Below, in pieces: positions 1 through 17,637 of a stretch of DNA of 17,637 bases. Source of the stretch: a virus (Duplodnaviria; Heunggongvirae; Uroviricota; Caudoviricetes); IMG/VR virus record IMGVR_UViG_2579778784_000009. One strand, written 5' to 3'. Under the pieces are notes generated by a model. That model was not told where the DNA came from, ran no database searches, and worked only from the letters and a program-made list of their open reading frames with translations. The position numbers and the translations under genes were made by a program. Numbering within the stretch: position 1 is the stretch's first letter; the number at the start of each line of letters is the position of its first letter.

Positions 1-1143
1 CTATGCTGTTTTGATATCTACGATAATCCAGTCTTTACCACGATCATCATTGTATCGGTCGGTCATTTTTCTGGATTTATGGCCTAACAACTTTTGCGTA
101 TCCAGACCCTGTTCCCGATATAACCGTTCTGACAGAGATCGCTGCTCATGAAATGTGGGCGCAGTTCCTTGCTCCCATTTTATGCCACATTTTTCCCTGG
201 CCTTTTTAAAAGCCGTTGTCAGAGTATTCGCAGAAACCTGGTCTCCTCTGTTTGCTTGAGAGGTTGTGTGACGGTAATGGACCAGATATTTACTAACAAC
301 AGCATCCCTGCACTGAGATATAACTTCACGAAGGGTAATATTCAGAGCATCGCATTTCAGGTTAAGCGGAATAGCAAGTTTTGAACCGGTTTTTTTCTGA
401 GTAATGTGCAACATGTCGTCCCAGATATCAGAGAATTTCAAATTGCAGATATCGCCTAAACGTTGTCCAGTGACAAGAGCAAGTAGCATCCCGCATTTTA
501 AATAGGGCTGCCGTCTGCTTACGCTGTCAAATATTGCCTGCCATTCGGGCAGTGATAATCTTTGGCGGTTTACTCGATTTCGCGGTTGTTTTGTTGCCTG
601 CGCTGGGTTAAATCCTGGCGGAACATGTCCTGCGTGTTGTGCTTCTTTGAAGACGTCGATTAACACCATTCTCACGACTTGCGCCATCCTGTTATGACCT
701 TCAGCCTTTACAGCATCAATTATTTCGGCAATATCAAGTGCGGTAATATCCTTGAGGTGTTGTATTCCACAATGCTCACGGAAAAGACGAATGGGTTTGC
801 CTTTTTGCCGATAGGAGTTGGGTCTTAGTTCATTATGTTGCAGCCTGTCCTCCTGGATAGAAATATATTTATCAAGCCATTCTGTCACCGTAATGTCTGA
901 GCGCCTGCCTTTCATTCTTTCCAGACGCTCATTGACGCTTAATATTTGTCGGGTACGTTGTTCAGCAATAATGGTATTTGCTTCAGTAGCAACTTGTTTT
1001 GCTTCATTCTCATCAGTTCCTAAGCTATGAAAACGACCGGATAGTGGATGTTTGTATTGCCAATATACCTTTCCGGTTCGCTTATCTAATTTGCAATATA
1101 AATTGGGTATAGAGATTTTGTGAGATCGGGGTCTAGCAGCCAT
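1..1143 (-). CDS. int: Phage integrase, tyrosine recombinase (lambda Int-like)
   Basis: 380-aa ORF with ATG at 1143. C-terminus (HEQRSLSERLYREQG...LLGHKSRKMTDRYNDDRGKDW) matches the lambda Int catalytic region from recall. Overlaps the upstream xis stop, as in lambda. Confidence 0.9.
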   Translation of the reverse strand: MAARPRSHKISIPNLYCKLDKRTGKVYWQYKHPLSGRFHSLGTDENEAKQVATEANTIIAEQRTRQILSVNERLERMKGRRSDITVTEWLDKYISIQEDRLQHNELRPNSYRQKGKPIRLFREHCGIQHLKDITALDIAEIIDAVKAEGHNRMAQVVRMVLIDVFKEAQHAGHVPPGFNPAQATKQPRNRVNRQRLSLPEWQAIFDSVSRRQPYLKCGMLLALVTGQRLGDICNLKFSDIWDDMLHITQKKTGSKLAIPLNLKCDALNITLREVISQCRDAVVSKYLVHYRHTTSQANRGDQVSANTLTTAFKKAREKCGIKWEQGTAPTFHEQRSLSERLYREQGLDTQKLLGHKSRKMTDRYNDDRGKDWIIVDIKTA

Positions 1144-4215: not shown

Positions 4216-4512
4216 TTATACCTCTGAATCAATATCAACCTGATGGTGAGCAATGGTTTCAACCATGTACCGGATGTGTTCTGCCATGCGCTCCTGAAAC
4301 TCAACATCGTCATCAAACGCACGGGTAATGGCTTTTTTGCTGGCCCCGTGGCGTTGCAAATGATCGATGCATAGCGATTCAAACAGGTGCTGGGGCAGGC
4401 CTTTTTCCATGTCGTCTGCCAGTTCTGCCTCTTTCTCTTCACGGGCGATCTGCTGGTAGTGACGCACCCAGCTCTGAGCCTCAAGACGATCCTGAATGTA
4501 ATAAGCGTTCAT
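4216..4512 (-). CDS. gam: Host-nuclease (RecBCD) inhibitor Gam, short form
   Basis: 98 aa starting [15 protein letters not shown], equal to the GamS portion of lambda Gam. AGGAG RBS upstream of ATG 4512. Confidence 0.9.
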
Positions 4513-4586
4513 GGCTGAACTCCTGAAATAGCTGTGAAAATATCGCCCGCGAAATGCCAGGCTGATTAGGAAAACAGGAAAGGGGG

Positions 4587-4997
4587 TTAGTGATTCAGGC
4601 CGTTGCCGCGTCCGTCGAGAAAAACTTCCACGAGCAAGTCACGGGTATAAGTGCGCTCGATGCCGCGATGCAGATAAAGCCGTCCGCGTAAATTAGCTGA
4701 TGCAGTCCAGGTACCATCTTTGTGTTTGACCAGCATTCCTGGCATGACCGCACCGCGATTAACGGTCTGTGTTCCGTAATGTTGATGAACCATAAAAACT
4801 CCTGCCCGTAAGCTGGGCTGCTGAACATATAGAGACTTCTGCGCGTATTCAGGCGGTGGATGGCCGCCGGTTGTCATAACTAAACCGCCTCGTTGAAGCG
4901 ACTGAGGTATGAAATGTTGAGTTAATTTCAGCTGGTCACACCGACGTTCACGCGTCCGTTTCACCCCTCGCACTCCCCGAAGCCTGCTGAAATTCAA
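4587..4997 (-). CDS. Hypothetical protein at the first position of the pL operon; start uncertain
   Basis: 136-aa ORF whose track start is TTG. Internal ATGs at 4877 (GAGG upstream) and 4793 (GGAG 5 nt upstream). Arg-rich N-terminal stretch ([15 protein letters not shown]). Confidence 0.35.
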
Positions 4998-5065
4998 ACT
5001 GCGGATCTAAGCGGTCATCGCAACGGTGAATCAGGTGGTTGCCGTATCGTTGTGTTGTTGCGATA

Positions 5066-5127
5066 TGGTGATAATAGCTATTGCTATTGGTGATATCAAT
5101 ACTTATTGCTATTGGTTGATGTGTTTT
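5066..5127 (-). promoter_or_regulatory. OL/pL-like leftward promoter with operator repeats
   Basis: Minus strand -35 TTGATA (plus 5094-5099), 17-nt spacer, -10 TATTAT (plus 5071-5076). TTGCTATTGG repeated at 5081-5090 and 5106-5115; the same 9-mer recurs in the cI-cro intergenic region. Confidence 0.55.
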
Positions 5128-5242
5128 GATATTAAATGTTTGATAGCAAAAAGAATTAATTTTGTGACTTGCATCGCATAGCGATAACTGAAGGGAGGAT
5201 GTGGTGGTTTTTCGAACGGTTTGTGTGATGAGGGGACAAAAG

Positions 5243-5268
5243 AAAACCCGGCACGGTGGCCGGGATTC
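5243..5268 (-). terminator. Putative intrinsic terminator ending the cI passenger operon
   Basis: Hairpin CCCGGC-ACGGTG-GCCGGG (5247-5264), followed on the minus strand by UUUUCUUUUG. Lies directly 3' of the ASCH gene stop. Confidence 0.5.
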
Positions 5269-5646
5269 TTACGCAGGTAGGTAAAGATATGATTGTGGTG
5301 GCTTAATATTACTACCTAGAGCAGAGATAGGAATTGGTTCTTTATATCTTTCCACTTCACCAATTTTTATTGCGTAGGCCTTTTCTCTACCTGAATAATA
5401 TGAGTCATAAAATTGCTTAGAAATACCTGCGTGCTTTTCCGTCTTTTTCCAAAGAGATTCCGGTTCGTCACTTAGTATTGATTCAATACGGAATTGACCA
5501 ACAACTTTACCTAATGGCATCGTGGCATAAATAACAACGGTGCTAATTTGCGGATTTTTGAATATACCTTTACGAAACTCGAACCGCTTTGTTCCGTTCA
5601 ATATTTTTTCTGCAAACTCAGGCTTAATGGATAATAAAACTTTCAT
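5269..5646 (-). CDS. ASCH-domain (PUA-like fold) protein, 125 aa
   Basis: N-terminus MKVLLSIKPEFAEKILNGTKRFEFRK fits the ASCH pattern. AT-rich. Overlaps the 3' end of the upstream gene by 23 nt. Confidence 0.7.
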   Translation of the reverse strand: MKVLLSIKPEFAEKILNGTKRFEFRKGIFKNPQISTVVIYATMPLGKVVGQFRIESILSDEPESLWKKTEKHAGISKQFYDSYYSGREKAYAIKIGEVERYKEPIPISALGSNIKPPQSYLYLPA

Positions 5647-6685
5647 TTATCTTGCCTAACTCGATGATCTTTAAGAACTGCTCATTTGTGAGTTTAAAGT
5701 GACTCCATCGGAATGCACGCGAACCATTTAGCCCCACATGATCTATTAAAATAGCACGATTGGGTCTCTTTGGCAAAGACAGATTGTATGTGAATCTTAT
5801 AATGAAAGGGTATCGACGTTCTTTATAGATTTTTCTGAGTTCATCTTCAGAAAATACGCTAAAACGAATACAATAGTCTACAAAACTATCTTCGCTTAAA
5901 AATTCAGAAATATTTTTTACGCTCTCAACTACACATAATGTACTGGCTACAGAACGATAGCGAGCTGGCCCTTTTTTGTCTCCGGTTCTATAGATGACAA
6001 TGATATCTCCTCTTTTCATTCCCATCACAGAACGCATTCCACATATGTAAATTTTATGAATGCTGTTAGCATGGGATATATCTTTGACAATATCTGGTGA
6101 TTCATTTACAAGTTTTGAATCAGGGAATAGTCTAGTGTGATATTCGGGATAAATCGCCAGTAAATATTTGTTGGCCCTTGATGTCATTATTCGAGGGTAA
6201 TCTAATAAAATATCACCATAAGGCTCATGCAAAGACCTCGCATATACAAACTCTTTCCCGTTATGTGTTTCTTTTTCACCATGAATGTAAAATCCGTACG
6301 TTTGGAAAAGTTTTATTAGATGGACGTGTTTGTCGAAAACAGTAACATAAATATCATCAGATTTTGATGAAAATGCATGGTCAAACGCTTTTTTTAGAAA
6401 TCGTTGTCCGCGAAGGGTGCCTTTAGATTCAAATTTGAATGTTCCTATCTTTAGATGACGTCCTGGTGGGAGCGCTGGATTAATGTCATTTGCATCATCA
6501 TTTTCTTTTAGATACATAAAACCTTCGATTTTATGCTTGTCATCATAGAGCACATAAGCTGATTCTCCTTCTCTGGCTTTTTTTTCTAACCAAAGAGGAA
6601 ACTCTTTATAATCTTTTTTTAAAGAGTCAAAAAATGGGTCATTGTGATCAAAATCAGAGAATTTCTCATATTTTAAAGTATCCAT
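5624..6685 (-). CDS. Uncharacterised protein (353 aa from ATG 6685; ORF extends to 6697) with GNAT-like N-terminal features
   Basis: Long AT-rich ORF. GGAG lies 6 nt before the second ATG. N-terminal half has the GNAT-like motif FQTYGFYIHGE. C-terminal half is unassigned. Confidence 0.7.
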   Translation of the reverse strand: MDTLKYEKFSDFDHNDPFFDSLKKDYKEFPLWLEKKAREGESAYVLYDDKHKIEGFMYLKENDDANDINPALPPGRHLKIGTFKFESKGTLRGQRFLKKAFDHAFSSKSDDIYVTVFDKHVHLIKLFQTYGFYIHGEKETHNGKEFVYARSLHEPYGDILLDYPRIMTSRANKYLLAIYPEYHTRLFPDSKLVNESPDIVKDISHANSIHKIYICGMRSVMGMKRGDIIVIYRTGDKKGPARYRSVASTLCVVESVKNISEFLSEDSFVDYCIRFSVFSEDELRKIYKERRYPFIIRFTYNLSLPKRPNRAILIDHVGLNGSRAFRWSHFKLTNEQFLKIIELGKINESFIIH

Positions 6686-6765
6686 TAAGTTCTCCATTCT
6701 AAAATGAATAATTAAGTTGTTTTACTGAATGAGCACAATGCCCGGTTGATAATTTTTAATTGGTA

Positions 6766-7458
6766 CTATCCATGCTTCCTATACGTCTGCGGCATGCTCC
6801 CAATAACTTTCCCGAAGATAAATACCCGGTTCATCTCATCTTTCTCGATCGGGTCCCACGGTGAGTAGCTTTTGTTATCAGAGATAACCAGCAGCTTATC
6901 CTTCATCATTTGCAGGCGCTTTACATGGGCTGTGTCGTCGTACAGAAACGCATAGATACCATCACCGTCGAAAGATTTAACCGTGATATCAACGAATAGA
7001 AGATCACCAGGTTCAATCGTTCCTGACATGCTGTCACCGCGTACGTTAATGATGCGGATATTTTCTGCCTTCCTACCATCGAACATGTGACGAGCATCGT
7101 CAAACGAGTACTCAACCGAGCGTAGAACTTCTACAAACTCACGGTTGATGACTCCCGGCCCGGCACTCACTTCTATATCAAGAACGTCAATTTTAAAGTA
7201 TTTGGAATAGCTGACAGCAGGCTTCCCTGATTGTTGACCGTCATTTCTCATCGGGCCTATGCCTGATGAGAGCCATTCTGTTCGAACACCCAATGCATTA
7301 GCTATTTCAACAATTTTTGTTGAGCCGCGCGCGTTGCCGCTTGTCAGTCTCCAGATTGTGGGTTGAGCTACGCCAGACGCCTTTGCAAGAGCGCCTTGAG
7401 ACATTCCAGATTGTTCCATCGCTAGGTTTAAGCGATCAGCAAGAGTTTCTTTTTTCAT
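6766..7458 (-). CDS. cI: CI-type prophage repressor (HTH plus S24 LexA-like peptidase domain)
   Basis: N-terminal HTH (SQGALAKASGVAQPTIWRL) and C-terminal VRGDSMSGTIEPGDLLFVD...VKRL (Ser/Lys dyad). Track start at 7494 is TTG. ATG at 7458 has no RBS and lies about 10 nt from a TATAAA, so the mRNA is probably leaderless like lambda cI from pRM. Confidence 0.85.
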   Translation of the reverse strand: MKKETLADRLNLAMEQSGMSQGALAKASGVAQPTIWRLTSGNARGSTKIVEIANALGVRTEWLSSGIGPMRNDGQQSGKPAVSYSKYFKIDVLDIEVSAGPGVINREFVEVLRSVEYSFDDARHMFDGRKAENIRIINVRGDSMSGTIEPGDLLFVDITVKSFDGDGIYAFLYDDTAHVKRLQMMKDKLLVISDNKSYSPWDPIEKDEMNRVFIFGKVIGSMPQTYRKHG

Positions 7459-7568
7459 AAGTTTTAATTTATACGCTTGCGTATTGATGGTCAAAACACG
7501 TTTTGCTATTGCTTGGATTAATACGCATTGCTATTATTTATTCATTGCAATACCAATAGGAATTGATA
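7459..7568. promoter_or_regulatory. OR-like divergent control region (pR, pRM, operators)
   Basis: Plus strand pR: -35 TTGCTT (7509-7514), 17-nt spacer, -10 TATTAT (7532-7537). TTGCTATTG at 7503, TTGCTATTA at 7528, related CATTGCAATA at 7544. Lies between divergent cI and cro. Confidence 0.6.
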
Positions 7569-7796
7569 ATGACAAATCAAACCATTCAACTCGCAATCAG
7601 TATTACAGGTAGTCAAAAACGACTGGCAGATCTATGCGGTGTAGCCCAACCCACAGTTTGGCGTTGGCTACACGGTGGCGGAATTGATGCCCGCTATGTA
7701 ATGAAAATTGTCTCAGCCACTGGTGGAAAGATTAAACCAGCAGATATTCGTCCCGACCTCGCACCATTGTTTAACGCGAGTAATTCTGCCGCCTAA
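7569..7796 (+). CDS. cro: Cro-like HTH regulator (YdaS-like)
   Basis: 75 aa from ATG 7569 with AGGA RBS. HTH motif SQKRLADLCGVAQPTVWRWL. First gene of the rightward operon, divergent from cI. Confidence 0.75.
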   Translation: MTNQTIQLAISITGSQKRLADLCGVAQPTVWRWLHGGGIDARYVMKIVSATGGKIKPADIRPDLAPLFNASNSAA

Positions 7797-7820
7797 ACTG
7801 CGGCGTTAACTGATAAGGCA

Positions 7821-8366
7821 ATGACTATGCAACCACTTACATACCAACAGACTAGCGGATTTAGCCCGACTGCGGTGATAAATCGTTCTCAAACAAAACA
7901 GGCGCCAGGCCACGAAAAAATCCGTGATGCCGTTCGCGCCTGGTCGGCTGCAGATAATCAGGATGTTGTTGCCGCACTCATTGTGAATGAGTATCGGGAG
8001 CAGGGCGGCGGCACCATCGATTTCCCTGATGATGTCAGCCGTGCACGCCAGAAGCTGTTCCGCTTTCTCGATAACAAATTCGATTCTGAAAAATACCGAA
8101 ATAACGTGCGTGAACTGACCCCGGCAATTCTGGCGGTACTACCGCTGGAATATCGCGGCCACCTGGTTGAGCAGGATAGCTACATGGCTCGGCTGGCTGA
8201 AATGGAAAAGGAACTCAGTGAGGCAAAACAGGCTGTCATTCTCAACGCACCACGCCACCAGAAACTGAAGGAGATGAGTGAAGGCATTGTGTCGATGTTT
8301 CGTGTGGACCCGGATCTGGCTGGTCCATTGATGGCGATGGTCACCACCATGCTGGGGGCAATATGA
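7821..8366 (+). CDS. YdaT-family protein (CII-position regulator)
   Basis: 181 aa with AAGG RBS. IVNEYREQGGG and LTPAILAVLPLEYRGHL resemble Rac YdaT by recall. Sits between cro and O. Confidence 0.65.
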   Translation: MTMQPLTYQQTSGFSPTAVINRSQTKQAPGHEKIRDAVRAWSAADNQDVVAALIVNEYREQGGGTIDFPDDVSRARQKLFRFLDNKFDSEKYRNNVRELTPAILAVLPLEYRGHLVEQDSYMARLAEMEKELSEAKQAVILNAPRHQKLKEMSEGIVSMFRVDPDLAGPLMAMVTTMLGAI

Positions 8367-8452
8367 CAGGTTCAGAAATGGCGAAAGCCGGTCTGCGCGA
8401 ACAGAACCGACTTTCAGGTGCAAATCGTAACACACTCATTGCGGGAGGAATT

Positions 8453-10973: not shown

Positions 10974-11240
10974 TGGTTAGATCCATAGTTCTGGCTGTGA
11001 TTAGGTGAAAGTATACAAGGTTTTTAAAGCGAAGATCACTGTTTTGGCTTCAAGATAGTTTTGATTTATCGTAATCAATCCGCCATAATCCTCTCATCGG
11101 AGCCTGAACAACTCCGGTGACTTCTGCGCATTTAAGGGGACTTAAATGCGACCACAATCTGAACTCATCACCTTGTCACAGATGCAGAAATGCACCTGCG
11201 ATGTCTTGCATCCAGCGTTTGATCTCTGCGGAGGTGAAGC

Positions 11241-13302: not shown

Positions 13303-14385
13303 TTAGAACTGATAAACCAGACCTACAGCGACGATGTCGTCGGTATCAATACCAGCTGTTTTGGTAAACTTACTATCGTCAATTAAGTTGATTTTGTAAT
13401 CAACAAAAGTGGACATGTTTTTATTAAAGTAGTAAGTAGCACCGACATCGACATACTTGACTAAGTCTCGGTCACCATGAACACCAAGGTCTTTACCTTT
13501 TGACTGAAGGTAAGCAACAGATGGACGCAGACCGAAGTCAAACTGATATTGTGCTACTGCTTCAAAGTTTTGTGCTTTGTTTGCAATATGGTTATTACCA
13601 AAAACGGTCATATTCTGAGTTTCAGAATATGTGGTAGCCAGATAGATATTGTTCGCATCATATTTCAGGCCTGCAGCCCATACTTCCGCATTTTTGCCGG
13701 AGGCATTGAATTTGCTCTTACCATAGGCGACCTGACCGTCAGTGCGATCTGATTTAGCATAGGTTGCACCCACGCCGAATCCTTCATACTCATAAGTAGT
13801 GGAGAAACCGAAACCATCACCATTGGCTTCAGTTACGTCAGTGCGGTCATTTTTACCCTGATACTGAGCAGCAAAGTTCAGGCCATCGACCAGACCAAAG
13901 AAGTCGTTGTTACGATAAGTTGCAACACCAGTAGTGCGACCAGTCATGAACACATCTGTTTGGGTCCAGGTATCACCACCGAATTCTGGCAGAACGTCAG
14001 TCCACGCACCGATGTCGTATGCTACACCGTAGTTACGGCCGTAATCGATTGAGCCGTAATCACCAAATTTCAGGCCTGCAAATGCAAGACGGGTTTTGTC
14101 TTTGGAAGAACCTTGAGATTCAGCACGGTTGCCTTTGAATTCATATTCCCACTGACCGAAACCAGTCAGTTGATCGTTGATTTGGGTTTCACCTTTGAAG
14201 CCAAGACGGGCATAAGTAGTATCACCATCATCTGCATCATTAGAGGAGAAGTAGTGCTTGGCATTAACTTTCCCGTATAGATCCAGCTTGTTACTGTCTT
14301 TATTATAAATTTCAGCTGCCTGAGCAGACATCGCCATCAGTACTGATGCAGCTACAGCAGAAATTGCCACTGTTAATTTTTTCAT
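13303..14385 (-). CDS. nmpC: OmpC-family porin, NmpC/Lc type (phage-borne)
   Basis: Signal peptide [23 protein letters not shown], then [16 protein letters not shown]...VGLVYQF, a classic general porin. The track ORF has a spurious 20-aa N-terminal extension. Confidence 0.9.
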
Positions 14386-14811
14386 TGTACGCCCTTTTTT
14401 TGAACTATTATTAAAAAATGATGTCACTGCGCGATAAATATTCATCTAATCAATGTGATTATTTCAAGATGTAAGTTTTAGTTTCTCATTTAATTTGTGA
14501 AGTAGATCTCTATTTTTATCGGAACCTTTTCTATCTAATCCTATTCATGGCTCTTGTCTGAACAAAAATAAATCTATTAGCTAATTTATATTAATGGCAC
14601 TTATTTATAAGTGCTCTATAATTCTTTAGCTTAATTTAAACAAACTAAAAATAACATCGGAAATTATTAACTGGTTATTTGTTGAAGTTTTCTTATGCAT
14701 TTGTGGTGGTGTTTTGAACACTCGGTGGCATTCTCACAAATATCATTTAGTAGTTTACGTACGTAAAAAATTGGTTATGCTGTTAAGAGTGGTTACTTCG
14801 TCACACAGCTT

Positions 14812-15189: not shown

Positions 15190-17637
<2,448 letters not shown>

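Follow-up and report, generated by a model that had tools for sequence, protein, structure and literature searches.

A nine-base sequence recurs in two noncoding stretches on either side of a repressor gene in a 17,637-nucleotide virus record of the class Caudoviricetes (IMGVR_UViG_2579778784_000009; this whole stretch of DNA is called the window below). The question raised by this locus was whether the repeats are the operators of a phage immunity switch and, if so, what the repressor reads. A sequence-only reading had placed the 9-mer in pairs in a left (OL) and a right (OR) control region, over the promoters pL and pR, and had proposed that the copies are operators of the repressor CI and that cI is leaderless. 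According to the computational analysis described here, the region is very probably the immunity switch of a 4A7-like lambdoid prophage in which CI acts on 16-bp dyads at OR and OL in the manner of lambda.

The probable operator unit

The 9-mer TTGCTATTG lies at 5081-5089, 5106-5114 and 7503-7511, exactly where it had been reported, with a one-mismatch copy, TTGCTATTA, at 7528-7536, and the reported 25-bp spacing is true of both OL and OR. With an expectation of 0.20, three exact copies occur, a number that was not reached in any of 200 dinucleotide-preserving shuffles. Every copy is confined to the two intergenic control regions. Because AATA or AACA stands 8 bp upstream of each 9-mer and completes a dyad AATA-N8-TATT, it may be concluded that the repeated element is a 16-bp dyad. 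The recognised unit appears to be the pseudo-palindrome AATA[C/G]-N6-[G/C]TATT (AATA-S-N6-S-TATT) and not the 9-mer, which consists of positions 8-16 of the unit (its right half) and one non-conserved flanking base. The proposal that these sites are CI operators was thus sound in substance, but the direct repeat as such is probably not what is recognised.

When the strong sites of the window and its relatives (17 distinct ones) were pooled, the half-site A-A-T-A-[G/C]-[C/G/T]-N-A was obtained, in which positions 1-4 hardly vary and position 5 is as often G as C. A position weight matrix (PWM) derived from the five window sites gave matches of at least 13 bits only within OL and OR and at a sixth site, 7549, which had been held out. 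All matches of at least 10 bits fell within OL or OR; with a PWM of the relatives' strong sites, 0.44 such matches would be expected in the whole window. A generic inverted-repeat finder failed to pick up the operators because their arms are too short.

The sites in OR begin at 7470 (OR3), 7495 (OR2) and 7520 (OR1), an exact 25/25-bp register. OR3 (7470-7485) had been overlooked in the sequence-only reading, as had a conserved fourth OR site (7549-7564) and a distal OL site (5142-5157). The genes cI and cro are divergent, with at least three dyad operators between them that overlap pR and the cI promoter pRM, and a second cluster of the same operators was found over pL on the far side of cI. 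Two promoters were picked independently by a promoter scan: pL (TTGATA-17-TATTAT, 5099 to 5071, minus strand; 10/12) and pRM (TTGACC-17-TAAATT, 7494 to 7466, minus strand; 9/12). OL1 covers the -10 element and the spacer of pL. OR2 has TT in common with the pR -35 and directly adjoins the pRM -35. The overlap of the sites with pL and pR elements, which had also been claimed, was confirmed, for pL by the promoter scan and for pR by eye only. The features are listed in Table 1.

Table 1. Operators, promoter elements and genes of the immunity region (window coordinates; aa, amino acids; HTH, helix-turn-helix)
Feature	Sequence	Position	Strand	Remarks
OL1	AATAGCTATTGCTATT	5073-5088		PWM 22.6 bits; perfect 6-bp arms; holds 9-mer at 5081
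OL2	AATACTTATTGCTATT	5098-5113		PWM 20.0 bits; holds 9-mer at 5106; 25 bp from OL1
Distal weak OL site	GATAGCAAAAAGAATT	5142-5157		Centre 44 bp from OL2 centre; function predicted
pL -10	TATTAT	5071-5076	-	Promoter scan; overlapped by OL1
pL -35	TTGATA	5094-5099	-	Promoter scan; 2 bp in common with OL2
Intrinsic-terminator-like hairpin and T run		5247-5264	-	Closes cI/cargo operon before OL
Two cargo genes		5269-6697	-	Co-oriented with cI, in slot of lambda rexAB; not part of switch
cI		6766-7458	-	230 aa; N-terminal HTH_3 and C-terminal Peptidase_S24 domains
pRM -10	TAAATT	7466-7471	-	Promoter scan; 7 nt to ATG at 7458
OR3	TATACGCTTGCGTATT	7470-7485		PWM 13.8-16.1 bits; identical in 8/8 relatives; over pRM spacer and 2 bp of -10
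pRM -35	TTGACC	7489-7494	-	Promoter scan; abuts OR2; GGTCAA invariant in relatives
OR2	AACACGTTTTGCTATT	7495-7510		PWM 15.8-16.4 bits; weak left half; holds 9-mer at 7503
pR -35	TTGCTT	7509-7514	+	By eye; TTGC conserved in relatives
OR1	AATACGCATTGCTATT	7520-7535		PWM 21-22 bits; overlaps pR -10; holds 9-mer variant at 7528
pR -10	TATTAT	7532-7537	+	17-bp spacer from TTGCTT; predicted start near A7544
Fourth OR site	AATACCAATAGGAATT	7549-7564		About +6 to +21 of pR transcript; overlaps cro ribosome-binding site AGGAA 7558-7562
cro		7569-7796	+	75 aa; YdaS/P22-Cro type; recognition helix AQPTVWRW
cII-position gene		7821-8366		Protein matches YdaT family

Conservation and specificity

The comparison set included the window phage, Salmonella phage ST104, a Klebsiella phage and prophages of Kluyvera, Citrobacter and Raoultella (eight relatives, five genera). 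The CI proteins of the relatives are 82-86% identical to that of the window, except for locus L013, which is 56% identical overall with an N-terminal domain of 95%. The CI recognition helix AQPTIWRL is identical in all eight.

The 25/25-bp register of OR3, OR2 and OR1 was found in all relatives. OR2 is identical in them except for one centre base in L009, and OR1 varies only at centre positions 6-7 and at position 16, while the spacer between OR2 and OR1 varies at 7/9 positions. The OL1 site is present at an unchanged position in 8/8 relatives; its 25-bp distance from OL2 is invariant, and the pair lies 1.1-2.9 kb beyond cI, accompanied by the distal element GATAGCnAAnnGAATT. Over OR and OL together, variable columns made up 4/50 of the outer operator positions, 10/30 of the operator centres and 35/57 of the non-operator positions (Fisher p = 5e-9, outer operator versus outside columns).

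Loci in which one domain of CI has been exchanged were compared with respect to their operators. In L013, the N-terminal domain is 95% and the C-terminal domain 40% identical to that of the window, and all operators are kept. The opposite combination was found in three loci. L006 (PhiR5_1) has an identical C-terminal domain (100%) and an N-terminal domain of 55%; there was no PWM match of at least 10 bits, and its OR consists of ACAACCA-type repeats. L012 (C-terminal 90%, N-terminal 50%) has an OR of the same ACAACCA type and a single isolated 12-bit match outside OR and OL. L007 (C-terminal 90%, N-terminal 26% and HK022-like) gave no PWM match, and its OR is built of TGAAC...GTTCA repeats. 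All operator-positive loci have the helix AQPTIWRL. These swaps and the reciprocal search described below show co-variation of the operator with the DNA-binding domain of the repressor, and the motif appears to follow the N-terminal and not the C-terminal domain of CI. This agrees with the suggestion of the sequence-only reading that the sites mark a candidate immunity specificity.

As a side observation, the CI genes of the window, L006, L007, L012 and L013 are mosaics recombined between the N- and C-terminal domains; three different DNA-binding domains, each going with an operator type of its own, are found fused to a C-terminal domain that is 100% or 90% identical.

In the reciprocal search, viral contigs with two TTGCTATT copies 25 bp apart were collected, and 119 stretches were examined. 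The motif was indeed found elsewhere next to this CI type: 84 of the 119 encode a CI N-terminal domain with QPTIWRL, 76-2518 bp from the match. Fourteen of these 84 form a subfamily that is 60-67% identical in the N-terminal domain, and both members inspected keep the four-site OR layout. Of the others, three are fragments of this phage type that contain OL only, about nine come from promoter regions in unrelated phages, where analogous dyads of the form AATAGC...GCTATT occur, and the remainder are apparent chance matches or tandem repeats. It was observed separately that six stretches (L158, L176, L190, L175, L210 and L105) carry unrelated repressor/Cro pairs and, at a spacing of 25 bp, AATAGC-N3-5-GCTATT dyads that lie on the -35 and on a TATTAT -10. 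No similarity to the window CI N-terminal domain was detectable in them, and the shared layout may mean that this operator/promoter design recurs or that there is a very distant relationship.

Direct computation shows where the sites lie, how they are spaced and conserved, that they overlap promoter-like hexamers and that they co-occur with the N-terminal domain of CI.

Alternative explanations of the repeats

Two explanations other than binding of CI to the dyads were considered. According to one of them, the direct repeat TTGCTATTG is itself recognised, by a protein bound head-to-tail every 25 bp. All four copies do lie on the plus strand despite the divergence of pL and pR, and ATTGCTATT is the most frequent half among the relatives. 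However, the AATA or AACA 8 bp upstream makes each copy part of a dyad, and OR3, which has no 9-mer, is unchanged in all eight relatives and retains the dyad ATACGC..GCGTAT. Moreover, OL1 in ST104 and six other relatives reads AATAGCA.....TATT/C, with the common half on the other strand and the position unchanged, and HTH/S24 repressors of this fold bind as symmetric dimers, as homology to 434 repressor suggests. Head-to-tail recognition was considered highly improbable.

Still less credence was given to the explanation that the repeats arise incidentally from promoter hexamers and the AT-rich composition of intergenic DNA and are not protein-binding sites. The TATT of the motif contributes TT to each of the two -35 hexamers and is itself part of each TATTAT -10 hexamer, pairs of TTGCTATT lie over -35 and -10 elements in unrelated phage contigs too, and promoter-like matches in the region are no commoner than in shuffles. 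On the other hand, the left halves are conserved though they lie outside any hexamer, and neither OR3 nor the site at 7549 coincides with pR hexamers. The motif is lost when only the CI N-terminal domain is exchanged, though such phages still need pR and pL, and the strength of the phylogenetic footprint also argues against this explanation.

CI, Cro and the proposed switch

CI has an N-terminal HTH (HTH_3, 1.4e-6) and a C-terminal LexA/S24 self-cleavage domain (Peptidase_S24, 1.3e-18). Its recognition helix begins at residue 31, and the Ala-Gly (SAGPG at 98), Ser (GDSM at 141) and Lys (VKRL at 179) motifs of the self-cleavage domain are present. The closest solved structure to residues 6-67 is that of 434 repressor (PDB 1per, 2or1 and 1r69; E = 2e-5 to 7e-5). 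The Cro helix QPTVWRW was found in 8/8 relatives, with K in place of the A that precedes it in ST104. It closely resembles the helix of CI, and Cro is predicted to use the same sites.

In the proposed switch, CI dimers composed of a 434-like HTH and an S24 self-cleavage domain would bind 16-bp pseudo-palindromes with the half-site AATA-[G/C]-N-N-A. OR1 would be occupied on the pR -10, OR2 at the pR -35, abutting the pRM -35, and OR3 on the spacer and -10 of pRM. From these positions over pR and pRM, CI bound to OR1 and OR2 would silence cro, and either CI or Cro bound to OR3 would silence cI; Cro would act through the same sites as CI. OL1 and OL2 would cover the -10 and -35 of pL, 2.4 kb away beyond two prophage-expressed cargo genes. 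CI binding, cooperativity, pRM activation, looping, the order of site filling and the transcription start are proposed here by analogy. With this arrangement, the locus is a textbook lambdoid immunity region with no new principle beyond lambda, and what is mildly unusual in it is limited to two conserved auxiliary sites, the fourth OR site and the distal OL site.

Several observations weigh against this interpretation. The pR -35 matches at 3/6 positions only, below the threshold of the promoter scan, and the distal OL site scores only 7.1 bits. Over the whole scan, 8 promoter-like sites were found versus 9.4 in shuffles, so hexamers alone prove little. Among 80 near-identical loci, polymorphism amounted to 4/40 in the outer operator versus 17/70 (p = 0.08), which is a trend only, on sparse data. 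A full-text literature search for the operator strings returned no papers. Finally, the centre of OR2 is about 44.5 bp upstream of the cI ATG, compared with about 42 bp in lambda; lambda-style activation of pRM is not to be assumed.

Start of the cI transcript

On the coding strand, cI is preceded by TTGACC, 17 bp, TAAATT and AAAACTT. The A of the ATG thus falls at the eighth position downstream of the -10, inside the range in which transcription usually starts. The TATAAA to which the sequence-only reading had drawn attention is present at 7473-7468 (minus strand), 9 nt from the A of the ATG at 7458, and there is no ribosome-binding site. As the pRM -10, TATAAA is less likely; because it is only 15 bp from TTGACC, TAAATT, at 17 bp, was preferred. 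The sequence AATT+TA is invariant in the eight relatives, and the gap between -10 and ATG is constant at 7 nt while its sequence varies. AGGA, GGAG and GAGG are absent upstream of the cI ATG in the window and in the eight relatives. The ATG of cro, by contrast, is preceded by AGGAA at a distance of 6 nt.

The cI mRNA is probably leaderless, with the pRM transcript beginning at or 1 nt before the AUG. The earlier proposal of a leaderless cI thus gained support, in an argument from geometry, from the missing ribosome-binding site and the constant 7-nt gap, but not in the form of an arrangement via TATAAA. Leaderless repressor genes have been documented for lambda cI and CP-933P paaR2 (PMC8630535). 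It was considered rather unlikely that cI is not strictly leaderless, either with a start directed by TATAAA and a leader of about 3 nt or with CI produced mostly from longer upstream (pRE-type) transcripts. Taken alone, TATAAA is the better -10 match (5/6), and a YdaT-type CII, which in related systems drives an alternative upstream start (PMC9986795), is present. Nevertheless, the sole good -35 is at the optimal 17 bp from TAAATT, which was chosen by the scan, and a gap that is invariant in length and variable in sequence, without a ribosome-binding site in the relatives, would be hard to explain unless the AUG were at the 5' end.

A terminator-like hairpin of 12 pairs followed by a T-rich tail was also noted at 7245-7272 (plus strand), antisense inside cI. 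In prophage NC-SV, a small RNA (svsR) has been reported to be encoded antisense at the 3' end of cI (PMC12803456).

Auxiliary sites

The fourth OR site was held out of the PWM and scored 16.0 bits with the PWM of the five window sites and 15.5 bits with that of the relatives' strong sites. Its pattern AATAC-N6-GAATT (AATAC...GGAATT) is kept in 7/8 relatives, 12-13 nt after OR1, while its centre and the spacer vary; it is degenerate in ST104 and in the more distant subfamily. The cro ribosome-binding site accounts for the right half only. The distal OL site is conserved in 8/8 relatives while the flanking spacer diverges. Both auxiliary sites combine a canonical half with an unusual GAATT half, in the same orientation. 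In three relatives, an extra full site lies between OL2 and the distal site, where the window has a degenerate remnant at 5118-5133. This remnant, GATGTGTTTTGATATT, scored 0.8 bits and is not claimed as a third OL site.

A design with 4+4 sites instead of the 3+3 of lambda, with the fourth OR and distal OL sites as dedicated auxiliary sites, is possible but doubtful. If it is true, a roadblock or translational block on cro would be possible, and the auxiliary sites might anchor an OL-OR loop or a higher-order CI complex. Partial precedents are the four-palindrome OR of CP-933P (PMC8630535) and the distant OL3 of HK022 (PMC8053113).

Comparison with described immunity systems

As in lambda, cI and cro diverge and have three tandem dyads between them, of which one overlaps the pR -10, the middle dyad separates the two -35 elements and the last is situated on pRM. 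Further operators are clustered at pL, from which OR is separated by about 2.4 kb that include prophage-expressed cargo genes and a terminator; the repressor is of the HTH and S24 type, and no ribosome-binding site precedes cI. The centre-to-centre spacing of the operators is 25/25 bp, whereas it is 24/23 bp in lambda OR. Unlike lambda, the window has 16-bp operators of unrelated sequence, an all-alpha Cro of the YdaS/P22-Cro type, a YdaT-type CII, no N-like gene after pL and extra conserved sites at 7549-7564 and 5142-5157, and its OR2 abuts the pRM -35 without overlap.

A close correspondence was found with the ST104 type (Salmonella phages ST104, SE1 and ST160), which has been described as a repressor-specificity class of its own, with no operator listed (PMC2629481); a literature search found no published operator for ST104. 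Its CI is 86% identical, with identical recognition helix and HTH residues 20-48, and its operator half-sites are the same. OR3 and OR2 are identical, OR1 differs in one centre base, and OL1, OL2 and the distal site are present at unchanged spacing. In OL1 of ST104, the 9-mer is absent and a one-mismatch copy, ATGCTATTG, is found on the opposite strand only, while the position of the site is kept. ST104 differs from the window in being a P22-like podovirus; it has gene 24 (N-like) and a c1/CII of the lambda type, and its cargo gene is not the same. The window CI is of the ST104 repressor type, and the two phages are predicted to be homoimmune.

The PaaR2-YdaS-YdaT system of CP-933P (Escherichia coli O157:H7) resembles the window in its YdaS-type Cro and YdaT-type CII, in a leaderless repressor gene (experimentally established there, probable in the window) and in cargo genes co-transcribed with the repressor. 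Its OR contains four palindromes, two with a degenerate half-site, plus an OL/pL copy (PMC8630535). The operators differ, being 18-bp palindromes with the half-site GTTTAGTAA (PMC8630535, PMC9986795). The window CII is only a distant homologue of CP-933P YdaT (E = 2e-4 to 8bt1). The exact CP-933P YdaT site TTGATT-N6-AATCAA was noted as TTGATTTATCGTAATCAA at 11061-11078, intergenic in the nin area, and a one-mismatch copy at 7563-7580 overlaps the cro start codon. This consensus was kept as a lead only for the site of the window CII; the protein is distant, and relatives with other cII types do not retain the copy at cro.

The HK022 CI is 40% identical overall, but only 29% in the N-terminal domain. 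Its OL has two adjacent sites and a distant third, with looping reported, and OL-OR looping has been demonstrated (Carlson & Little 1993, as cited in PMC8053113); the distant OL3 parallels the distal OL site of the window. By sequence, the OR and OL sites of HK022 are TGAAC-N5-GTTCA. No window-type PWM match was found in the HK022 immunity region, and no TGAAC-N5-GTTCA sites were found in OR or OL of the window. Immunity of the HK022 type, which the annotation of ST104 CI as HK022-like would suggest, was rejected on account of the different operators and the dissimilar N-terminal domain.

The N-terminal domain of 434 repressor is the closest of those with a solved structure, and its recognition helix sequence is different. 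The 434 operator is 14 bp long (ACAA-N6-TTGT); the repressor dimer contacts the conserved outer 4 bp of this dyad, and the centre is variable and uncontacted.

Neighbouring genes and distribution

The window belongs to a 4A7-like lambdoid phage. Bases 4500-8400 can be aligned throughout, at 98.8% identity, with the genomes of Escherichia phages 4A7, Lambda_4C10, 1W and 3W (genus Bievrevirus). The gene order is int, exo, bet, gam (4216-4512), kil, OL, the two cargo genes, cI, cro, the cII-position gene, O and P. No N-like antiterminator gene was found downstream of pL. The gene kil lies in the frame of an open reading frame at 4587-4997, of which the 207-nt annotation in 4A7 corresponds to about 4588-4794, and about 270 nt between pL and kil are untranslated (4795-5064, minus strand). 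A put-like or other structured RNA in this leader was considered and dropped; there was no Rfam hit, and it did not fold better than shuffles (z = +0.8).

The cargo genes encode proteins of 357 aa and of 125 aa, the latter with an ASCH domain, which match the PADLOC candidate defence system PDC-M11 A/B (E = 2e-133 and 7e-52), and they fix the distance between the OL2 and OR2 centres at 2397 bp. The pair is annotated as GevT/GevA toxin-antitoxin in phage PhiR47_2; a literature search for GevT/GevA returned unrelated matches only. In 74 of 80 loci with near-identical CI, OL was found at a variable distance from cI; each of the other six either stops 214-1328 bp after cI, perhaps short of OL, or was not placed on the cI anchor. 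The cargo slot itself is variable, with 663-1986 bp from the cI stop to OL among these 80 loci (CI at least 99% identical), and in PhiR5_1 it holds a HipA-like pair.

Elsewhere in the window, a perfect (100% identical) 191-bp tandem duplication was noted at 15683-15873 and 15875-16065, which may be real or an assembly artefact. By eye, without a family-library scan, a tyrosine-integrase-like gene was seen at the left end (1-1143, minus strand) and a gene for a 380-aa OmpC/NmpC-like porin on the late-gene side (13303-14445, minus strand).

The cI N-terminal segment and OR (window 7250-7600, matched at 90% identity or more) were found in 719 of 5,426 complete E. coli genomes, nearly always as a single chromosomal copy. 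The exact CI protein is present in E. coli strain 536, and source databases name it an XRE or helix-turn-helix regulator or a phage-related repressor. This immunity type is thus common in E. coli, and its helix and operators also occur in prophages of Salmonella, Klebsiella, Kluyvera, Citrobacter and Raoultella. An operator defined together with mapped pL, pR and pRM would aid annotation of the variable defence-gene slot co-transcribed with cI and the design of reporters and orthogonal repressor/operator parts. It would also allow homoimmunity to be predicted, for example, between 4A7-like coliphages and ST104-like Salmonella phages.

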